Assembly: GCA_021797995.1 (NCBI GenBank) | Contig: JAJZYR010000005.1 | Coordinates: 1-50,601 of the forward strand | Source of the DNA: Candidatus Micrarchaeota archaeon | Lineage (GTDB): Archaea; Micrarchaeota; Micrarchaeia; Micrarchaeales; CABMGC01 | DNA length: 50,601 nt | Direction: 5' to 3' | Part shown: piece by piece, positions 12,119-22,209 of the stretch | Layout: the number at the start of each line of letters is the position of its first letter | Position numbering within the stretch: the stretch's first letter is position 1 | Made by a program: the position numbers and the translations under genes | The notes under the pieces: model-generated | What the model saw: only the letters and a program-made list of their open reading frames with translations | Databases searched by the model: none | Told to the model about the DNA's origin: nothing

Positions 12119-13375
12119 ACTTAAGTTCGCCACTTTGGGCAGTGAAGTCTCTAACCTTTTGATCTAACCTGATTCGCCAAATCGAATTTTACCAGCGCAG
12201 ATTGAGGTTTTTATCCCCATATCTTAAGGGAAAATCCCCTAAAATTGCCTCAATTGGGGGCGAAAGATTGCTCACGACCCTGATTCTGAACCCGTTTCGG
12301 GGATAAATGACCGTAAGTGTCAAATTTCCGAGGTATTTTTTGAGTAACTTGAAATTCTTGACGTCAGGGTTCTTGCACAATTTTTCTGTCAAATTTATTA
12401 TGGCTGATGCGAGGAAACAGACGAACAACGCCCCTATAATTGCATCTCTGTTCCAGTGGCGTATTGGGCGCAGCTCACCTCCTTCCTTCATGCACCTTAT
12501 GAACTTCTCCGCAACATCTCTTTGCTTGTACAGTTCAAGGACTATCTTCGGATCTACGTCAAGAGAACTTTCAAGAATGAAGAACCCCTCGATACCAGTT
12601 ATGTATGGGTTTTCGATATTCGAGATGGTTTGCTGTATCTCAGGATAAAGCCCGATCCATCCCTCCTTTGAAGGGAACGTTTGAACTGCCTTGTGTTTCC
12701 TTGCCTTCTTTGCCAGTTCGCCTCCTTTCTTCAATCTCCTTTGAAACTTCAACTCCTTCTTTCGCAATTGATCCTTACAGAGTTCCTTTGAGAAGAAGAT
12801 GTAGAGGAATTCGTTGTCTCTTTTGTCCGATGCCCTCTTCACTGCGAGATACTCCTCTTTCACGACGTTTGGTGCTTCTCCTCGTTCGATCGTAATCTCT
12901 TGGCATTCCTTCTCGAAGTTCTTTATGTGATTCTTGTACGTCCTTACCTTTTTCGCCTTCAAGGTTAGGTAGTTGTACCCATTGCTGATAATCTTATCTT
13001 TTACCCACGGTGAATTGCCGCCGCAATCGAACATGATGAGAGACCCTTTTTCGAGGATTCGCAGCGACACTTTCAACATCTCCCTCATATGCAGTTTATC
13101 CTGTAGATTGCCTCTTTGTATCGTCAGCGCAGTGGGAATGCCACTGACACCGGTGGTTATACCCCATGTAACCTGCTTTTTGTCAGGCCTGTGGTCTCTG
13201 GAGTATCCATGTTCCGCCAGTTCGGCCTTTTTCCCTTCGAAATACGATGAAGAGAAGTCAGTGATCTGATCATTGTCAACCAATCCCTTTTCAGAGATAA
13301 TGTTCTGGTATTTTTCCATCAGTATCGGAAATAGTCTACTTATCTTCTGGATGTCTCGGTAAAGAGATCTTTCGG
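12119..13375 (-). mobile_element. IS1634-family transposase, 5'-truncated by an IS66 end
   Basis: DFSSSYFEG, GYSRDHRPDKKQV, FDCG, LYKQRDVAEKFIR, LRPIRHW; frame continues upstream of 13319 (ERSLYRDIQK) up to the IS66 TIR. Confidence 0.85.
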
Positions 13376-14207
13376 GTAGCTGTTTAGAGTTTTGAAGTGC
13401 CCAACGACAACTTATTCTCGAGGTACTCTTTGCCCCAAGTAAGGAAGTTATGGTCTCTCATCTTACACGTCTGAAGAGTTGTAAGCAGTACTGGCATTGT
13501 GACTATGCCGTTGTCTCCCCTACTCCCATAAGAGTTCTTCCGCATTACAACTGTTGGTCTTATTGCTCTTTCCGCAACATTATTGTCTGATGTGACGCCA
13601 TCTTTGATCAGGAATGTGAACATATTTCTTGCATGTCTCCTGAGTCTCTTTATCAGTCTCTTGCAGTCGGAATCTTTCCAACCTTCATTGCATAATGCAA
13701 TGACTCTGTCTTCTAGGTGCCCCTTTCGTGTTTCTAGCACGGATAGACGTTTCTCCCTTTCTTTCAGTCGTTTGCCGTCATCAAGTATCCTCTTGAGCTT
13801 CTTTTTGAAGACAAGGAATTCACCTCCACTGCATTTTCCCTTTGCAGTCTCCTTCAAGTCTCTGCGAAGATGGACGTCGCATTTCTGCCAACTACTTCCG
13901 GCGTAATTGTATGCCCCTAAGAAGTCGCTGCCTACGGTACCTCTGTAGTCTTTGCCCAACACCCTCTTTGGTATCTTCTTGCCCCTGCTATCTTCGATAG
14001 TGTAGAATGTCGTCCATTTTCCCACGAAAGCCCACAGCCACCAGTTTTTCCCGTTCTTTCTCCAACTCGTCTCGTCTCCATTAACATACGGGCTCTTTCT
14101 CAGATCTTCTCTGAGTTCATCGTAATATTCTCCAAACTCACCTGCCAGAGAGTCCAACATCTGTGGCAATGCACCCTTTGACAAATCTAAACCATACGCA
14201 ATCCGAA
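13376..14207 (-). mobile_element. IS66-family transposase (TnpC), 5'-truncated, with its downstream TIR
   Basis: GDETSW, WLWAF, SRG, SDFLGAY, QKC.VHLRR, DNNVAERAIR; TIR GTAGCTGTTTAGAGTTTTGAAGTGC at 13376-13400. Confidence 0.88.
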
Positions 14208-15616: not shown

Positions 15617-15795
15617 ATGGAGAGGCCAAGGTTCCTTATCACGGGCAGTGCGGGATTCGTAGGCAGGCACATGATTGCGGAGGCAGTGCGGAACGGCTAT
15701 GAGGTGGTAGTGCCAGACATAAAGGAGAACAACAGCGCAGGGATGGAGTTTGTAAGGGCTGACATCCGGGACAGGGCAGAGGTCGCAAGGAGCAT
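15617..15795 (+). pseudogene. 5' stub of an NAD-dependent epimerase
   Basis: MERPRFLITGSAGFVGRH...ADIRD; similarity ends after about 58 codons. Confidence 0.75.
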
Positions 15796-15806
15796 CATGC
15801 CGCCGC

Positions 15807-15929
15807 TCACTTCCTCCAGTATTCTACCATCTTGTCAAGCCCTTCCGACAAAGAATATTCCGGCTCCCAGTCCAGCAGCTCCTTCGCTTTTGAGCTGTTG
15901 CCTATGAGTACCTTTGCGTCAAGTGGCCG
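15807..15929 (-). pseudogene. 3' stub of an NAD-dependent epimerase/dehydratase
   Basis: Hand translation RPLDAKVLIGNSSKAKELLDWEPEYSLSEGLDKMVEYWRK* is a classic extended-SDR C-terminus; no start. Confidence 0.75.
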
Positions 15930-15996
15930 CGGCGGGGAGCTGTGCCAGGTCCGCAGTTCAAATGCCTATATATATTTACCTATATATAATATCTGC

Positions 15997-16605
15997 ATGA
16001 CTGTTTACAAGCAGACTCTTCTCCGCGAAGACGCATATAACCAGCTCGTTGCAGCAAAGGAGAGGCTGCGCTCGCTGTATGGAAGAAGGATAACGCTCAG
16101 TGACGCCATAAACCTCATGATAGGCAGGAGGCTCAACCTTCTCTACCTGCCTAAGGAGATGCAGGAGTACATCTCAGGGTTCGTGAAGATCGCCTCGGAA
16201 GACAGGCAAGTCCTGGGGGTTCTGCTCTTCGGGTCCGTGGCGAAGGGCACCTACGGCAAGTACAGCGACATAGACCTGCTCGTGATGGTAAGGGGAAGGG
16301 CCAAGGAGCACCTGCAGCCGGTGCACGAGATGGTGCAGTCTGCAAACCCGCTTGCGGACAAGTTGGCTGATACGGGAATATACTCTTACATAACGCCCAT
16401 AGTGCTCGGCAGCGATAATTCCGGAAGGTTCTCGCCACTGTACGCAGCGTTTGTTGACGAGGGCATAACGCTCTTTGACAGGGACGGCGCGCTTGCCGGA
16501 TTCCTCTCTGATGTGAGCAGGATGGGATATACCAGGGAGGAGTTGGCAGGGGCAATGGTAATAAGGTGGAAGCATGGAGGCAGAGGAGATACTGAGAAGC
16601 TCTGA
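15997..16605 (+). CDS. minimal nucleotidyltransferase (MNT) with an N-terminal antitoxin-like DNA-binding segment
   Basis: LLFGSVAKG..SDIDLLV; ATG 15997 follows TATA-rich DNA; N-terminus MTVYKQTLLREDAYNQL..TLSDAI looks RHH-like. Confidence 0.85.
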   Translation: MTVYKQTLLREDAYNQLVAAKERLRSLYGRRITLSDAINLMIGRRLNLLYLPKEMQEYISGFVKIASEDRQVLGVLLFGSVAKGTYGKYSDIDLLVMVRGRAKEHLQPVHEMVQSANPLADKLADTGIYSYITPIVLGSDNSGRFSPLYAAFVDEGITLFDRDGALAGFLSDVSRMGYTREELAGAMVIRWKHGGRGDTEKL

Positions 16606-16981
16606 GATGTGGCTCCGGACGTGCGACGCAAGCAGGAAGGCCGGGATTCCGGCCTCTGCGCTCTACAGCCTCGAGATGTCCGTGGAGATGGCGCTGAAGG
16701 CGGTGCTCTGCGGCCTGGGCATAGAGGTGCCGAAGGCACACAATGTCACGAACCAGATAAGGGAGGTTGCGAGGCATGATGCGCGGATTCCAAAGGAATT
16801 CAGGGAGAGGATGGATAAGATCGCCAGTACGTTCTCAACGCTGGTTGAGTACCGGGCACCATCCGGATACTCCTTCGAGTACAATCTCTCGGATGAGGAA
16901 TTGGAAAGAAAGCTTGACAGCCTGTATGACGACTCTAAGGAGATAATTGAACTCTGCAGGAGGGCGGTTGCGTCTTTATAG
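16574..16981 (+). CDS. HEPN domain protein, MNT partner
   Basis: EMSVEMALKAVL, PKAHNV, RAPSGY (Rx4Y); overlaps the MNT gene. Confidence 0.85.
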   Translation: MEAEEILRSSEMWLRTCDASRKAGIPASALYSLEMSVEMALKAVLCGLGIEVPKAHNVTNQIREVARHDARIPKEFRERMDKIASTFSTLVEYRAPSGYSFEYNLSDEELERKLDSLYDDSKEIIELCRRAVASL

Positions 16982-16991
16982 GGTTGAGGCA

Positions 16992-17111
16992 GTGGAGTTT
17001 CTCGACCGTCTGCTGAACCGAAGGCGCACCGGATGCGTAAATGGAGAAAGCGGAAGCAGGATAGAGATCTACGGGTACGGAAATGGGAAGGTCATGAAGT
17101 TCAACGGAATC
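16992..17111 (+). repeat. 5' stub 1 (about 40 codons) of the spermidine-synthase-like gene at 20451
   Basis: GTGGAGTTTCTCGACCGTCTGCTGAACCG...AAGTTCAACGGA; about 85% identical to 20451-20570 by hand count, no indels. Confidence 0.95.
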
Positions 17112-17298
17112 GAAAAGTCGTCGGAACAGGAACATGCCCAGCAGACGCAGGGGAAGCCAGCAGCTTTTAGCCATTTGGGGATGCTGCTTCTTACTATGCA
17201 CTGGCTGCTCCGTCCTGTGCCTATAATTATTGAAACTTGTTTAATAAAGATGCGATAGATATTTAAATAGGTTAAACGATAATTGTTAGTTGCTTGCC

Positions 17299-18591
17299 AT
17301 GGACAGAATCATAACAAGGGATCTTCTGGAGACGGTGTCAAGGCACCTTGACGATGAGAAGATAATAGGCGTGCGGGGACCGAGGCAGTCTGGCAAGAGC
17401 ACGCTGCTGAAGCTAGTAAAGCAGAGGCTGATTGAGAGGGGGGTTCCTGAGAAGAGCATAACGCTTCTCACGTTCGAAGACCCGGGCGTACTCGACGACT
17501 TCGTCAAGGACCCTGTGCGAATGCTCAAGAGCTACGTTGCCGGGGACTCAAGGCACTACTTTCTGCTCGACGAGGTGCAGTATGACAAGGGTGCAGGAAA
17601 GCGCCTTAAACTCGTCTTCGACACTATGGAGGGGGTAAAACTCATTGTAACGGGATCGTCGTCTCTTGACATCGCTCAGGTCTCCAAGTTTCTTGTAGGG
17701 AGGATGCTCATGTACGAGCTCTATCCGCTGAGCTTCGGAGAGTATCTCAGATACGAGGACGAGAGGCTCTACAGGATCTTCATGGAGAATAATGAAGGGG
17801 TGTGTGCGGTGCTTGCTGGAAAGGCGGTAGAGCTGGAACTGGATGGAACCTCGCTTGGGGAGATAAATTCGCACTTTATGAAGTACATAACCTACGGCGG
17901 CTACCCTGATGTTGCAAGGCATGCGAATAACACAGATAAGATGGAACTGCTGAAGAACATATACACGACATATGTGGGCAAGGACATAGCCACACTCTTT
18001 GGCATAGACGACACGATGAAGCTGAGGAGGGTTCTGATAATTCTTGCCTCGCAGATAGGATCGCTTGCAAATTACAATGACCTGGCAAACAATACAGGCA
18101 CGTACTACAAGGAACTAATGCGGTACATGGGAGTTCTGGAGGAGACCTACATCATAAACCAGCTGAGGCCTTTTCATAAGAACATGAAGACCGAGCTGAG
18201 AAAGAATCCGAAGATCTATATGCTTGACCTAGGTATGAGAAATTATCTTGTGAATAACTTTAATGACCTTGAAAGGCGGGAAGATGCGGGCCACATAGTC
18301 GAGAACTTTGCCTTCTCAGAGCTGTTCAGGAACCTTGAACCAAACCGCTCCCTTTATTTCTGGAGAACCCTTACCAAAGCTGAGGTTGATTTCATATTGT
18401 GGGACCAGAACGCCGCGATCCCAATTGAGATAAAGTTTTCGGGCTTTAGGAACGCAGAGATAACTAGGGGCATGAGAAGCTTTATCTCCGAGTATAAGCC
18501 GCGTGTGGCCGTAGTGGCGACGCGTGATTTTATAAAGGAGGTCAAGATAGACTCGACCGCAGTCTTCTTCGTTCCTGTTGCTTTTCTATGA
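17299..18591 (+). CDS. AAA+ ATPase, AAA_14 plus DUF4143 (C-terminal PD-(D/E)xK-like)
   Basis: GPRQSGKST, LLDEVQ, VTGSSS, GGYP, KIYMLDLG, EVDF..PIEIK. Confidence 0.9.
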   Translation: MDRIITRDLLETVSRHLDDEKIIGVRGPRQSGKSTLLKLVKQRLIERGVPEKSITLLTFEDPGVLDDFVKDPVRMLKSYVAGDSRHYFLLDEVQYDKGAGKRLKLVFDTMEGVKLIVTGSSSLDIAQVSKFLVGRMLMYELYPLSFGEYLRYEDERLYRIFMENNEGVCAVLAGKAVELELDGTSLGEINSHFMKYITYGGYPDVARHANNTDKMELLKNIYTTYVGKDIATLFGIDDTMKLRRVLIILASQIGSLANYNDLANNTGTYYKELMRYMGVLEETYIINQLRPFHKNMKTELRKNPKIYMLDLGMRNYLVNNFNDLERREDAGHIVENFAFSELFRNLEPNRSLYFWRTLTKAEVDFILWDQNAAIPIEIKFSGFRNAEITRGMRSFISEYKPRVAVVATRDFIKEVKIDSTAVFFVPVAFL

Positions 18592-18627
18592 GGTGCGTAG
18601 TGCAATATGCTTTGTAGGTCTGGCTAG

Positions 18628-18806
18628 ATGGGATCCCTTGACCGACTGCTGAACAGGAAGCGCGTAGGATACGTAAATGGGGAAAGCGGAGGCAGGATAG
18701 AGATCTACGGGTACGGAAACGGGAAGGTCATGAAGTTCAACGGAACCGTGTACCCGGGGGTCAGCAAGGACAGCACATGCACGCACGAGTACTGGGACTG
18801 CTTCTT
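18628..18806 (+). repeat. 5' stub 2 (about 59 codons) of the spermidine-synthase-like gene at 20451
   Basis: MGSLDRLLNRK...THEYWDCF; about 86% identical to 20451-20627 by hand count, no indels. Confidence 0.95.
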
Positions 18807-18837
18807 GTGGGTATGCCGGAAGTGTGGTCTCTGATAA

Positions 18838-18870
18838 ATAACTATAAATAGTTATCGTTTTAGTAACTAT
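18838..18870. promoter_or_regulatory. palindromic operator/promoter upstream of abiEi
   Basis: ATAACTAT-AA-ATAGTTAT (18838-18855) overlapping a TATA-like box; extra half-site GTAACTAT at 18863-18870. Confidence 0.6.
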
Positions 18871-18873
18871 TCT

Positions 18874-19650
18874 ATGACAAAGAACAGTATGCCCGGGCAG
18901 AGCATGACCCCGACAGAGCAGAAGGTATACTTCGCGCTCTCAGGATCCGGTGGCATGCTCTTCGACATCGCGCAGATCAGAAGCTACGGTCTCTGCGGCG
19001 AGGGCATGCTGAGGAGGGCGCTCTCATCGCTCGTCGCGAAGGGCAGAATGACAAGGATAAAGAAGGGCCTCTACCTCATCGGCGACACCGACCCGTTTAT
19101 TGCAGGACCATACATGTTCAATGGCTACCTGGCATTTTCCTCGGCGCTGTATGTCTACAGGGCCTTCGATGAGAGACCTTCCCTTATATACGTGGCGAAT
19201 GCATCTTCGTCTGCCACGCGGATCCTGGGGGGCATGGAGATAAAGGGGGTTGCGCTGCATAGGCGGGCGCTCGGCATGACGCGCCATGAAGGCTATATCG
19301 TATCGACAAAGGCGAAGACGGTGTATGACAGCCTCTACCTGCCCGAAGACGCGGGTGGGTATGGCAAGGTGTTGCGCGGCATTGCGATGCTTGGCATGGG
19401 CAGGCAGGACTGGGATGAGTTCCTCTCTTACGTGAAGAGGTTTGAGGGGGCATCTTTCAGAAGAAAGGCAGGGTATCTCTTTTCGGTACTGAACACCGCC
19501 GGCGCGTTCGTGCCGCGCCGTGTCATAGACAGCCTGAGATGCCAGGGGGGCGTTACGAGGCTCGGGCAGGGAAGGAAGGGCAGCTATGTTAGGGAGTGGA
19601 ATCTGGTCGACTATGTCGGCAAGGAGGCCCTCATGGGGTGGGTGCAGTGA
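18874..19650 (+). CDS. type IV TA antitoxin, AbiEi-like (wHTH)
   Basis: LSSLVAKG..RIKKGLY, YLAFSSAL, STKAKTVYD; coupled to an AbiEii gene. Confidence 0.8.
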   Translation: MTKNSMPGQSMTPTEQKVYFALSGSGGMLFDIAQIRSYGLCGEGMLRRALSSLVAKGRMTRIKKGLYLIGDTDPFIAGPYMFNGYLAFSSALYVYRAFDERPSLIYVANASSSATRILGGMEIKGVALHRRALGMTRHEGYIVSTKAKTVYDSLYLPEDAGGYGKVLRGIAMLGMGRQDWDEFLSYVKRFEGASFRRKAGYLFSVLNTAGAFVPRRVIDSLRCQGGVTRLGQGRKGSYVREWNLVDYVGKEALMGWVQ

Positions 19651-20450
19651 TGGTGCCGAGCGAGGAGATGTGCAGGTCGATTGCGCCGAAGTCAGGCCTT
19701 CCCCTGGACTTCGTAGTGAAGGAGTTCTACCTCTTCAATCTGATGGAGGGCATTGTTGGCGGAGGCTTCTCGAAAGACCTTGTCTTCAAGGGGGGCACGG
19801 CGCTCAACACAGTCTATCTCAGCGGCCTCAGGTTCTCGGAGGATCTGGACTTTGACCTTGCAAAGGAGATTGATGACATAAAGGGATATCTTGGCATGGT
19901 CATGGGCGGAGCCGCGGGATTTGCAGGCACGGAGATGCGCAGGGTGCGCAACACCTATATGATAGACTTCATGTACGATTCGCCGTTGGGCAGGCGCGAC
20001 AGGGTGAGGCTTGACGTGAGAGTCGGCACGCAGCATCTCTCCGCAGAAAAGCCGCGCAGGATGGCAATGCGCTCAGTCGTCACGGGCCAGGTGGTCGGAA
20101 ACGTTCTTGTCTACGGATTCGAGGATCTGCTTGCGAGAAAGATGGGCGCGCTGGCGGAGAGAGAGGAGGGAAAGGACCTCTTCGACGTGTCTAATGCAAT
20201 TGGCAGGGCAGACCGGAGGAAGCTGCTTGGCGCCATTGGCTACATGCTGAAGGACCTTGCAAAGGACGCTGATATAACCGGCTTTATCGGGCGGGTGCTG
20301 GACAGGCTTGAGAACATGGACTATAACAAGGCAATGAAGCTTACGAACCCATACATACCAATAGCGAGCAGGCCGCCAAGCTGGAAGCTGCTCGGCGCGG
20401 ACCTGGCGGAGAGGATGCGCAGGCTCATGGAATCCGATAAGGGTATTTGA
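19650..20450 (+). CDS. type IV TA toxin, AbiEii nucleotidyltransferase
   Basis: VKEFYL, LVFKGGTAL, RFSEDLDF, K..AL..R.EGKDLFD. Confidence 0.9.
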   Translation: MVPSEEMCRSIAPKSGLPLDFVVKEFYLFNLMEGIVGGGFSKDLVFKGGTALNTVYLSGLRFSEDLDFDLAKEIDDIKGYLGMVMGGAAGFAGTEMRRVRNTYMIDFMYDSPLGRRDRVRLDVRVGTQHLSAEKPRRMAMRSVVTGQVVGNVLVYGFEDLLARKMGALAEREEGKDLFDVSNAIGRADRRKLLGAIGYMLKDLAKDADITGFIGRVLDRLENMDYNKAMKLTNPYIPIASRPPSWKLLGADLAERMRRLMESDKGI

Positions 20451-21206
20451 ATGGAGTTTCTCGACCGTCTGCTGAACCGGAAGCACGCCAGCTGCATAAA
20501 GGGGGAACGCGGAGGCAGTATAGAGATCTACGGGTACGGCAACGAGAAGGTCCTGAAGTTCAACGGAACCGTGTACTCGAGGGTCAGCAAGGACAGCATA
20601 TACACGCACGAGTACTGGGACTGCTTCCTTCCGCTCGCCTGCCTCTATCCCAGGCCGCGCGTGCTGATCATCGGGTTGGGGGGAGGAACTGTCGCATATC
20701 AGCTTCGCAAACTCTTCGGCGCATCAGTCACGATAGACGTTGTGGAGACTGACAGGAGCATGGTCAGGGCCATGGAAAGCTTCCTTCCTGAGAGGATAGA
20801 AGTAAAGGTAATGATAGGCGACGGAGCCGGATATGTTAAGAGCATAAAGCACAGGTACGACACGATAATCCTTGACGCCTACGTTAACGACCTTGTGCCT
20901 GAACAGTTCCTCACGCAGGAGTTCATTGACAGCACATACGATGCGCTGGGCCCTGCAGGGACCTTTGCAATAAACTACATCAACTCATCGAACGGGCAGG
21001 AGAGGCTCGAGGGCTACATAGCGCTCCTGAAGGCGAGGTTCAGGGTCTTCGAGGTGGCTCCCAACTCCTTTACCTCGAATGTGGTGCTCGTCTGCTCCAA
21101 GGTATTCGGGAAGGAGGAGATGCTCGAGCGGATAAGGGCGGCAATGCCGAGGGACGGGAAAAACCTCTTCCTGCTCGAGAGCTACGAAGGCATGAAGGAA
21201 GCATAA
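20451..21206 (+). CDS. spermidine synthase-like class I SAM-fold protein
   Basis: VLIIGLGGG, IDVVE, GDG, YDTIILDAY, FLTQEF. Confidence 0.8.
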   Translation: MEFLDRLLNRKHASCIKGERGGSIEIYGYGNEKVLKFNGTVYSRVSKDSIYTHEYWDCFLPLACLYPRPRVLIIGLGGGTVAYQLRKLFGASVTIDVVETDRSMVRAMESFLPERIEVKVMIGDGAGYVKSIKHRYDTIILDAYVNDLVPEQFLTQEFIDSTYDALGPAGTFAINYINSSNGQERLEGYIALLKARFRVFEVAPNSFTSNVVLVCSKVFGKEEMLERIRAAMPRDGKNLFLLESYEGMKEA

Positions 21207-21216
21207 TAGCCTGGCT

Positions 21217-21633
21217 TTATTCGGGCTGCTGGAACTGAGGCATCTTGACTCCATATGTTTCGCACTCGCCCTTTAGATTCCCGTCAAATGTCAACAGCGG
21301 CAGATCCTTCTTCTTTGCAAATGATAGTATGAGTTTGTCGTTGAATCTTTTGAATGTGGTGTTCCCCTCATGCATGATTGCATCTTTTGCTTGCATGATT
21401 TCGTCTTCGCCTACGCCGAGGATTTCGTAGGAGTTCAAGACCTCCCTTATCTCCTGCTCGATTGTCTTCTTGTCCAGACCCATCCTATTCAGTACGTACA
21501 CAAGCTCCTCTAATACGACGCTTGGCAAGACGCCATTGTCAATTCTTTCAAGATACTCCTTGGCTTTCTCATGCATCTCAGAGCCTTTTATTATATAATC
21601 CACCAGTACGTTTGTGTCTATCACGCACTCCAT
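21217..21633 (-). CDS. vapC: PIN-domain toxin (VapC)
   Basis: VIDTNVLV, VLEEL, FNDKLI, LLTFD. Confidence 0.88.
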   Translation of the reverse strand: MECVIDTNVLVDYIIKGSEMHEKAKEYLERIDNGVLPSVVLEELVYVLNRMGLDKKTIEQEIREVLNSYEILGVGEDEIMQAKDAIMHEGNTTFKRFNDKLILSFAKKKDLPLLTFDGNLKGECETYGVKMPQFQQPE

Positions 21634-21869
21634 TTTACCGCCTCTGAAAAACCCTCGTCTATTGCATCTTCTATCTCCTTCTCTGTTACCTGCCTGCCCA
21701 AGTCTATGATCTTAAGGGTCACTTTCTTCCGTGGCGCCTTCGCCTTGCTGGCCTTGAGCCTTTTGTTTATAAGCAGGGATAGTTTTCTGGTACTGCCATA
21801 CTCCTTTACTGACTCTGCCACAAGCTCCTGATACAGTTTGTCTTCTAGCATTATCGTTGTCTTTACCAT
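21621..21869 (-). CDS. vapB: VapB-type antitoxin
   Basis: MVKTTIMLEDKLY RHH-like start; overlaps vapC. Confidence 0.75.
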   Translation of the reverse strand: MVKTTIMLEDKLYQELVAESVKEYGSTRKLSLLINKRLKASKAKAPRKKVTLKIIDLGRQVTEKEIEDAIDEGFSEAVKWSA

Positions 21870-21933: not shown

Positions 21934-22209
21934 TTATTCGAGCCTCTTTATTATGTGGTAGCCGAACTGAGTCTTCACTATGCCCGATACCTGGCCCTTC
22001 TGGAGGGAGAATGCGGCCTTCTCGAACTCCCTTACCATCACGCCATGGCCGAACTGGCCCAGGTCGCCGCCCCTCCTCGCCGATCCGTCAATCGAGTACT
22101 GCTGCGCCAGGTTCGAGAACTTCTCCCCCCTGCCCAGCCTGTCCAGGATCTCCTTAGCCTGCGATTCGCTCTTTACCAGTATGTGCGCACACCTTATCTT
22201 GTCTGCCAT
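21934..22209 (-). CDS. ppiC: parvulin-type peptidyl-prolyl isomerase
   Basis: CAHILVK, GGDLG.F, MVREFEKAAF, VKTQFGYHII. Confidence 0.93.
   Translation of the reverse strand: MADKIRCAHILVKSESQAKEILDRLGRGEKFSNLAQQYSIDGSARRGGDLGQFGHGVMVREFEKAAFSLQKGQVSGIVKTQFGYHIIKRLE

Follow-up and report, generated by a model that had tools for sequence, protein, structure and literature searches.

We analysed a 50,601-nucleotide stretch of DNA from a Candidatus Micrarchaeota archaeon (contig JAJZYR010000005.1 of assembly GCA_021797995.1; the whole stretch is called the window) and found three toxin-antitoxin (TA) or defence modules stacked upstream of an intact spermidine-synthase-like gene, the anchor, each module being followed by a copy of the anchor's 5' end. 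Two of these copies are partial and are termed stubs; the third is the start of the anchor itself. From comparison with related genomes we consider it somewhat probable that the locus is an integrase-free displacement array, in which illegitimate events would have made cassette-stub units, ends-in homologous recombination would have spread them, and recombination between stubs would delete or convert them. The assembly under study (G000; the window is its contig C28) comprises 0.95 Mb and is 94.6% complete, and the metagenomes that hold the stretch come from mine drainage and tailings. G003 denotes the closest relative of G000, X1 to X13 are metagenome runs, P numbers are database protein variants, and +n or -n is counted from the anchor start codon.

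The array reads, all on the plus strand, MNT-HEPN, stub1, AAA_14-DUF4143 ATPase, stub2, AbiEi-AbiEii and intact anchor. A repeat search of the window returned one direct-repeat family with three copies, at 16992, 18628 and 20451, and whole-genome self-BLAST aligned 16993-17112 with 20452-20571 (85.8% over 120 bases, E 3e-32), 17001-17112 with 18637-18748 (88.4% over 112 bases, E 2.5e-33) and 18637-18804 with 20460-20627 (88.1% over 168 bases, E 1.7e-54). No fourth copy was found in the G000 genome, where the next-best match covered 27 nt (E 0.002). Together with Pfam and PADLOC searches, these results bear out the first-pass annotation of the locus, which had placed three gene starts and the same modules at these positions. 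Its statement that each copy begins at the start codon, 0-36 bp after the preceding stop codon, holds for the spacers (10 bp before stub1, 36 bp before stub2 and 0 bp before the anchor), but stub1 starts with GTG and not ATG, and in some pairs of copies homology begins 9 to about 22 bp before the start codon. The stubs do end at different points, which had been put at about 120 and 180 bp and are corrected here to +117 and +177. Stub1 (16992..17111) covers anchor codons 1-39; its homology ends at +117/120, with a clean end at +117 (17108), and it is 85.5% identical to the intact gene over 117 bases. Stub2 (18628..18804) covers codons 1-59, ends at +177 (18804) and is 86.4% identical to the intact gene, and its open reading frame (ORF) continues 9 codons past the end of homology.

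Cassette 1 (15939..16991) consists of an AT-rich, TATA-like region, an MNT gene (15997-16605; Pfam NTP_transf_2, 1.6e-10) and a HEPN gene (16574-16981; Pfam HEPN, 3.6e-12). The two genes overlap by 32 bases, the layout of an MNT-HEPN toxin-antitoxin pair, which they are predicted to form; the NCBIfam MntA-like model also matches MNT, below its cut-off. Cassette 2 (17112..18627) opens with a GC-rich spacer of about 110 bases; a TATA-like region, the gene of an AAA_14-DUF4143 ATPase (17290/17299-18591) and a 36-base native-like leader follow. The ATPase matched Pfam AAA_14 (9e-27) and DUF4143 (1.2e-39) and the PADLOC candidate family PDC-S01 (9.8e-87). In cassette 3 (18805..20450) a promoter region with an inverted repeat is followed by AbiEi (18874-19650; PADLOC 3.1e-30) and AbiEii (19650-20450; PADLOC 2e-23); in Pfam, AbiEii scored 9.1e-20 and AbiEi_4 matched weakly (3.4e-4). 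The AbiEi stop and AbiEii start overlap by one base, as in AbiE type IV toxin-antitoxin/abortive infection pairs, to which this pair would belong. The anchor itself (20451..21206) encodes a 251-aa protein with a PABS fold (Pfam Spermine_synth, 3.5e-13), and its NCBIfam polyamine aminopropyltransferase matches all lie below the cut-off.

Read directly from the sequence, an AT-rich, TATA-like stretch precedes each cassette, in agreement with the promoter region that the first-pass annotation had assigned to every module. The anchor has no gap upstream for a promoter of its own and is therefore probably co-transcribed with AbiE. Each cassette is also tightly fused to anchor leader sequence. The HEPN stop codon falls inside leader-like sequence, the leaders of stub1 and stub2 resemble the native leader of the related genome G011, and the last three AbiEii codons (GGT ATT TGA) are common to the junction between the anchor and a different gene, an ATPase called ATPase'', in G003. 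AbiEii and this unrelated ATPase end in the same nine bases, GGTRTTTGA, directly before the anchor ATG (window 20441-20450; L041 2284-2292 and 777-785 in G003), which argues that the last codons and the stop of both upstream genes derive from the anchor leader.

Each of the five junctions of the array is spanned by contigs assembled from other studies' runs, which extend 31 letters or more to either side. The passage from HEPN to stub1 is bridged by X3 record 27 and the stub1 end by X13 record 10; X3 record 28 and X13 record 11 bridge the passage from the ATPase to stub2, X3 record 29 and X13 record 11 the stub2 end, and X13 record 13 the passage from AbiEii to the anchor. G003 has two of these junctions as well, the one from MNT-HEPN to the stub and the one from stub +177 to AbiEi. 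The array could in principle be an artefact of assembly or binning, strain variants with different upstream modules having been stitched serially through their common gene start, and two observations fit such stitching: in G003 the array is broken at graph branch points into three short contigs, and module depths in run X10 are unequal (48, 27.8, 39.9 and 26.1). However, the sequences that meet at the stub ends are non-homologous, which means that shared k-mers could not have produced these junctions, and the copies are 12-15% diverged. With the bridging contigs and the recurrence in G003, this leaves the artefact with very little credibility and answers the first-pass annotation, which had named it as a way in which its reading could fail.

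In G003 the order is MNT-HEPN, stub_a, AbiE', ATPase', a 3' fragment of ATPase'' with stub_b, AbiE, stub_c, ATPase'' and anchor; this order was joined across three contigs by exact 127-base overlaps, and as the breaks imply graph branches, alternative paths may exist. AbiE' and ATPase' differ from the G000 genes, and the AbiE pair between stub_b and stub_c is the same as that of G000. Stub_a extends to +62/67, stub_b from +101 to +179 and stub_c from -9 to +62/72. As in G000, an anchor start comes after every cassette. The cassette next to the anchor is AbiE in G000 versus ATPase'' in G003. The arrangement is thus not fixed between the two genomes, differing both in order and in the number of stubs, which is three in G003. 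A strictly chronological order, with the newest module beside the intact gene, had also been proposed; it is blurred by gene conversion and by the relocated ATPase in G003.

The cassettes are far more similar between G000 and G003 than their surroundings. Cassette 1 is 96% identical from 15939 on, and the left flanks are unrelated. Synonymous divergence (dS) between the two genomes was 0.07 for MNT, 0.03 for HEPN and 0.09 for both AbiEi and AbiEii, against 0.64 for the anchor, 0.39 for the PIN gene downstream of it, 0.54 for the partner of PIN and 0.66 for parvulin; the next two core genes reached 1.36 and 1.99, and other core DNA is 65-76% identical. In four of four cases the near-identical tracts stop at cassette edges (at 15939, near +28 of stub1, at the end of stub2, and between about +15 and +29 of the anchor), and the stub bodies carry about 27% mismatches. 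The low cassette dS and the positions of these edges indicate that the cassettes are discrete units exchanged recently between species. Judged by its intermediate divergence, the anchor-PIN-parvulin segment was itself exchanged at an earlier time. Near-identical cassettes were found in one of 60 relatives, and the ATPase of cassette 2 had no near-identical copy among these 60.

We compared the stubs with the intact anchor alleles. G003 stub_b is identical to G003's own gene at 75 of 75 positions and 84% identical to G000 stub2, with which it shares the +177 junction. Between -9 and +69, stub_c departs from G003's own gene only at +8, +61 and +63, and the two are identical at 52 of 52 positions from +9 to +60. 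Stub_a is closer to the G000 allele (92% identity) than to that of its own genome (78%). The two stubs of G000 are 85-86% identical to the G000 gene and about 86% to each other. Both flanking copies therefore carry the recipient allele in the two anchor-proximal events of G003, and not in the older stubs of G000.

Variants in databases and metagenomes indicate that the copies also recombine with one another. The stub2 ORF occurs as six protein variants on 19 contigs, of which P0001, P0003 and P0005 carry a patch of the intact allele; in X3 and X10 contigs this patch comprises nine changes at 18662-18680. Anchor variants were compared as full-length proteins at least 90% identical to that of G000. 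P0010 and P0013 have an ATG start and a stub1-type patch at codons 11-15, and P0011 begins with V, corresponding to the GTG start of stub1, follows the stub1 allele to codon 15 and then the intact allele. In P0014, the translated HEPN end and stub1 leader run in frame into a full-length anchor. These four are the products expected of gene conversion and of a crossover between stub1 and the anchor that would remove the ATPase and AbiE cassettes. In addition, X10 contains G003-type junctions as loose ends, and X13 has a G003-type left flank at 15939. Joints at 21973-22181 are within the parvulin gene; other organisms are their probable source.

We propose a model in three steps. The unit would be a TATA-like promoter, one TA/defence operon, a tight fusion to the anchor leader and, at the left, a piece of the anchor 5' end. 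In the first step, a rare illegitimate event would place a foreign operon just upstream of the anchor start, duplicating or displacing its first 60-180 bases; the route could be homology-facilitated illegitimate recombination or a template switch. The former has been proposed for displacement arrays of type VI secretion system (T6SS) and Rhs loci (PMC5361080), and it is a fair candidate here, the first linkage of each cassette to the anchor still needing an illegitimate event. In the second step, which fits the data best, the left stub end and the right gene start of a cassette would both pair with the intact anchor of a recipient. Because the left arm matches downstream of the match of the right arm, such an ends-in event would duplicate the sequence between the two matches; a piece of a donor array (cassette, left stub end and start of the next copy) would be a suitable substrate. 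RadA-type recombination would insert the cassette and copy the recipient's own 5' end on both sides, giving a stub and a restored gene, and cassettes could in this way cross species without a recombinase of their own. For linear cassettes with 40-nt ends-in arms, one laboratory study describes cassette-held duplications that can be transferred between strains and lost by copy-copy recombination (PMC5389514). In the third step, which the variants show at the population level, the copies recombine, leaving gene-conversion patches and, probably, forms that lack cassettes. Cassette orientation and tight spacing are probably under selection, as the anchor has no promoter and would be read through from the cassette.

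Several results fit such a displacement array. Repeated fragments of one conserved gene separate unrelated modules, and the far-side junctions are variable and non-homologous; the modules are recent relative to their flanks and differ between close relatives. The ends-in model would account for the same junctions on different alleles, tract edges at cassette edges, G003 stubs that equal the resident gene, and the lack of an integrase. The first-pass annotation had envisaged import of a module together with a foreign anchor 5' end by one homologous and one illegitimate crossover, which fits less well, both flanking copies in G003 being the resident allele (52/52 and 75/75). Its view of the stubs as direct repeats that recombine is supported by conversion patches in both directions and by anchors with a stub1 leader or start (P0014, P0011), but excision or amplification has no counterpart among the contigs, which drop rare variants and showed no circles or deletion joints. 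Likewise, the slot upstream of the anchor appears hypervariable in that the G003 array differs, X10 holds alternative junctions and protein variants occur at strain level, but the array is not general to the anchor gene.

The same integrase-free route might be carried further, the stubs serving as portable homology arms that, with host RadA, make up a recombinase-free, integron-like cassette system. We put this forward only tentatively. A fragment or circle with a few dozen anchor bases on each side would insert into the anchor of another species, rebuilding stub and gene from recipient DNA, and the cassette might leave later by stub-stub recombination.

A recombinase was looked for at the array and in the genome. 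No tyrosine recombinase (PF00589) match was found in the window, and the G000 genome contains one partial 215-aa ORF of this type (C10:249-896). Resolvase (PF00239) and SSV-type integrase (PF16795) each gave 0 matches in the genome, and a Pfam scan of all array ORFs revealed no integrase or remnant at the borders. The 15 cassette-end sequences gave 0 pairs at E of at most 0.05, with no attC-like common site; no inverted repeats were found within the stubs, and no dif- or Xer-like palindrome was seen by eye in the conserved first 29 bases. The stub ends fall into three classes, +62/72 (and +62/67) in G003, +117 in G000 and +177 in both genomes, so that they do not share one constant crossover core. 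At these ends, 1-3 bases match after a mismatch, and 10 of 12 match at the stub_c end, in a microhomology check made without donor sequences. RadA is present in G000. The first-pass annotation had noted that no integrase or attachment site is visible at the array, and these searches, made in a nearly complete assembly, found none either.

Three further schemes were considered and rejected. With an integron-like core site in the first 29 bases, the stub body should travel with the cassette to its right, and the bodies are 73-84% identical between the genomes versus 96% for the cassettes (conversion in G003 weakens this test). An SSV-type split integrase found no support, as PF16795 gave 0 matches, the borders are too tight for integrase fragments and there is no resemblance to the junction repeat of C21. 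Nor does simple Campbell insertion work, with circles of a single lineage entering both genomes, for neither the left nor the right copies are common to G000 and G003.

A broader alternative is that the modules are decayed or cis-mobilisable integrative elements whose integrase, now lost or acting in trans, inserted them at the anchor 5' end, each element carrying a replacement gene start in the manner of elements stacked at tRNA genes. Integrase-less AbiE cassettes do lie elsewhere in G000 between 35-base copies of a tRNA-His 3' half (C29 25850/27167) and between 40-base repeats (C16), and C21 holds a tRNA-anchored stack. The AbiE junction is identical in the two genomes, two G003 stub ends fall within 10 bases of each other, and in tycheposon stacks partial tRNAs lie between the elements, with each new arrival moving the older ones inward (bioRxiv 10.1101/2020.12.28.424599). 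On the other side stand the searches above, which found no integrase in or beside the array and one partial PF00589 ORF, with no Resolvase or SSV-type match, in the genome, as well as three classes of stub end instead of one core site and cassette ends without a common motif. Integrase fragments would have to fit into no more than 70-180 bases to the left and 0-36 to the right, the right-hand copies in G003 are the resident allele and not element-borne, and the anchor start was not found on viral contigs. We judge such elements to be an unlikely origin of the array.

We give slightly less credence still to independent accidents in situ, in which a template switch to foreign DNA and back, or fill-in of a widely staggered break, copied 60-190 resident bases with no mobility at the level of cassettes, the similarity between genomes arising from ordinary recombination afterwards. 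This would suit several other inserts of 0.7-2 kb in G000 that are flanked by 78-90-base repeats of neighbouring gene ends (C11 2743/4556, C26 42936/43695 and C21 30995/33051), as well as the G003 stub interiors, which equal the resident gene. However, it leaves unexplained why the same AbiE junctions (+177 left, -9 right) occur on anchor alleles that differ by about 20%, why near-identical tracts stop exactly at cassette edges, and why dN/dS (the ratio of nonsynonymous to synonymous divergence) is low between the two stubs of G000.

A number of observations weigh against the integrase-free displacement array as well. The differences between stub1 and stub2 are mostly synonymous (dN/dS 0.21 over 39 codons), and this suggests that the older G000 stubs misfit pure duplication and might instead be imported, functional alleles, or that the anchor allele was replaced later. 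Gene conversion alone could explain the identity of G003 stubs to the resident gene. P0014 might be a small-k assembly chimera, 28 bases being common at its crossover; P0011, P0010 and P0013 have no such shared stretch, so a small-k chimera cannot explain them. No circle, deletion joint or insertion intermediate was found in a stub-to-stub search of assembled contigs (15900-21300), although contigs drop rare variants and are no measure of their absence. At 94.6%, the metagenome-assembled genome is not wholly complete, and a plasmid, a virus or the host cell could supply a recombinase. The stub ends of two different G003 cassettes (+62/67 and +62/72) lie within about 10 bases of each other and two junctions share the -9 start (GGTRTTTGA), which hints at some site preference. 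Finally, the stubs are confined to two species-level lineages, those of G000 and G003.

This last point comes from a survey of relatives. The anchor is a widespread single-copy gene, with homologues in 31 of 41 genomes including G000, and a GTDB scan with it gave 505 relatives, from which 80 loci were kept. Each locus was searched with its own anchor start. Extra copies were present in one of 22 relatives' loci, that of G003, and absent from the other 21. Among 82 public loci, 63 of which had 5 kb or more of upstream sequence, one had real stubs, namely L074, by length and coordinates the G003 contig again, and the other 81 had none. Short matches in L121, L148 and L150 (22 nt, or 38 aa at 34% identity) were judged to be chance and not stubs. 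A scan of metagenome contigs found 0 relatives with the single anchor protein and, with an alignment, two distant loci (42% identity) without stubs; a protein search with the stub1 ORF matched only the stub2 cluster again. On viral contigs there was no relative of the anchor and no exact 20-mer match. In G011, whose anchor is 75% identical, a HAD-like gene and a GHMP-kinase gene lie 12 bases upstream of the anchor, and neither was found in G000. In the other relatives the anchor neighbourhood is poorly conserved and often sugar-related.

Integrons also form an ordered, co-oriented array of cassettes beside a fixed point, and their cassettes are shuffled or lost. Unlike integrons, the locus described here has no IntI and no attC-like common site, its cassettes have their own promoters and its repeats come from a host gene. 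Accretion of cis-mobilisable elements at tRNA genes is likewise known. Tycheposon stacks resemble this array in the partial target copies between elements, the newest element beside the intact target, the frequent defence cargo and the integrase-less remnants; they differ in needing a tyrosine recombinase and a fixed attachment core, (bioRxiv 10.1101/2020.12.28.424599). No recombinase was found here, stub ends are of three classes instead of one, and it is the 5' end of a protein gene that serves as target. The engineered Dup-In constructs also hold a cassette between direct copies, use short permuted arms, are transferable and are lost by copy-copy recombination (Nasvall et al., 2016; PMC5389514). 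They were made in the laboratory in enterobacteria with phage lambda Red, whereas the present locus would be a natural, repeated, multi-cassette version in an archaeon.

The closest likeness in layout may be to the orphan arrays of T6SS effector-immunity, Rhs and contact-dependent growth inhibition (CDI) loci. There too, modules are added serially beside a conserved segment, older ones are pushed outward and kept without an integrase, and the arrays differ between close strains (Kirchberger et al., 2017; PMC5361080, which cites the work on displacement of Rhs C-terminal ends). In those systems the conserved segment is the toxin gene's own, displaced 3' ends are kept with immunity genes, and the array lies downstream. 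At the present locus, which belongs to a DPANN archaeon, unrelated promoter-bearing TA/defence operons lie upstream of a housekeeping gene whose 5' end is duplicated, and the pattern in G003 favours ends-in duplication of the resident sequence. Literature searches (supplements left aside) returned no description of such an array, nor of a natural multi-cassette Dup-In in archaea. The locus thus stands apart from the known systems by its anchor, the 5' end of an unrelated housekeeping gene, its promoter-bearing TA/defence cargo, its DPANN host and the evidence for ends-in duplication.

Defence islands are usually explained by integrases, transposons or exchange between conserved flanking genes, and this locus gives sequence-level evidence of another route. 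Once flanked by pieces of a conserved host gene, a cassette would need nothing more than homologous recombination to move, even where the core genes of the two species have reached saturation with substitutions. The model predicts that the stub interior is the recipient allele, that junctions are inherited with the cassette and that cassettes are lost through stub-stub crossover. It bears on the changing TA/defence sets of ultra-small symbiotic archaea with almost no mobile-element genes, and if the stubs do act as portable arms, minimal-genome DPANN archaea would have a general route to trade defence genes without mobile-element machinery. For annotation, short ORFs upstream of such genes should be read with caution, as they may be displaced gene starts.

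The array is limited on the left by a truncated 5' fragment of an NAD-dependent epimerase gene (15617..15799, plus strand; Pfam Epimerase, residues 7-60 versus profile positions 2-60 of 240). No full-length copy was found in G000, where the sole other tblastn match was 33% identical and lay on C19; G002 carries a complete homologue some 3.5 kb upstream of the anchor. A further 1.8 kb to the left are two minus-strand transposase ORFs (window 12189-14184), one of which matches DDE_Tnp_1 weakly and has a copy of 82% identity in G011, the other with an IS66-family match that lacks the first 37 profile positions. The right flank is a PIN (VapC-like) gene with a small upstream partner, convergent to the anchor (21217..21869, minus strand; Pfam PIN, 2.4e-21). 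G003 has an extra gene between the anchor and PIN, encoding a 247-aa RNA-ligase-like protein (L041 3041-3784), which G000 lacks. The tyrosine-recombinase-like ORF at C10:249-896 covers profile positions 24-124 of 172, lies at the contig start and adjoins a heavy-metal P-type ATPase gene.

Other mini-cassettes flanked by repeats of 35-90 bases occur in G000, and the process may be general in this organism, with the same thing happening at other anchor genes. At C29:25850-27201, an AbiEi/AbiEii pair with a GC content of 0.44, against 0.52 in the flanks, lies between perfect 35-base direct repeats without an integrase; the left repeat is the 3' half of a tRNA-His gene (C29 25810-25882). At C16:12968-14635, 40-base direct repeats with 95% identity enclose an AbiEii/AbiEi pair (GC of the insert 0.39). 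A 525-aa DUF4143 ATPase is found at C11:2743-4642 between 87-base direct repeats (87% identical) that overlap the 3' end of the neighbouring minus-strand ORF, with a VapBC-like pair beside it. A PIN-domain cassette of about 0.7 kb at C26:42936-43772 lies between 78-base direct repeats (85% identical) that copy the 3' end of the upstream ORF. Finally, C21:116017-125036 contains three DUF4143 ATPase genes, with a conserved module of about 150 bases, rich in hairpins, after each of them, together with an intron-containing tRNA and a tRNA 3' fragment.

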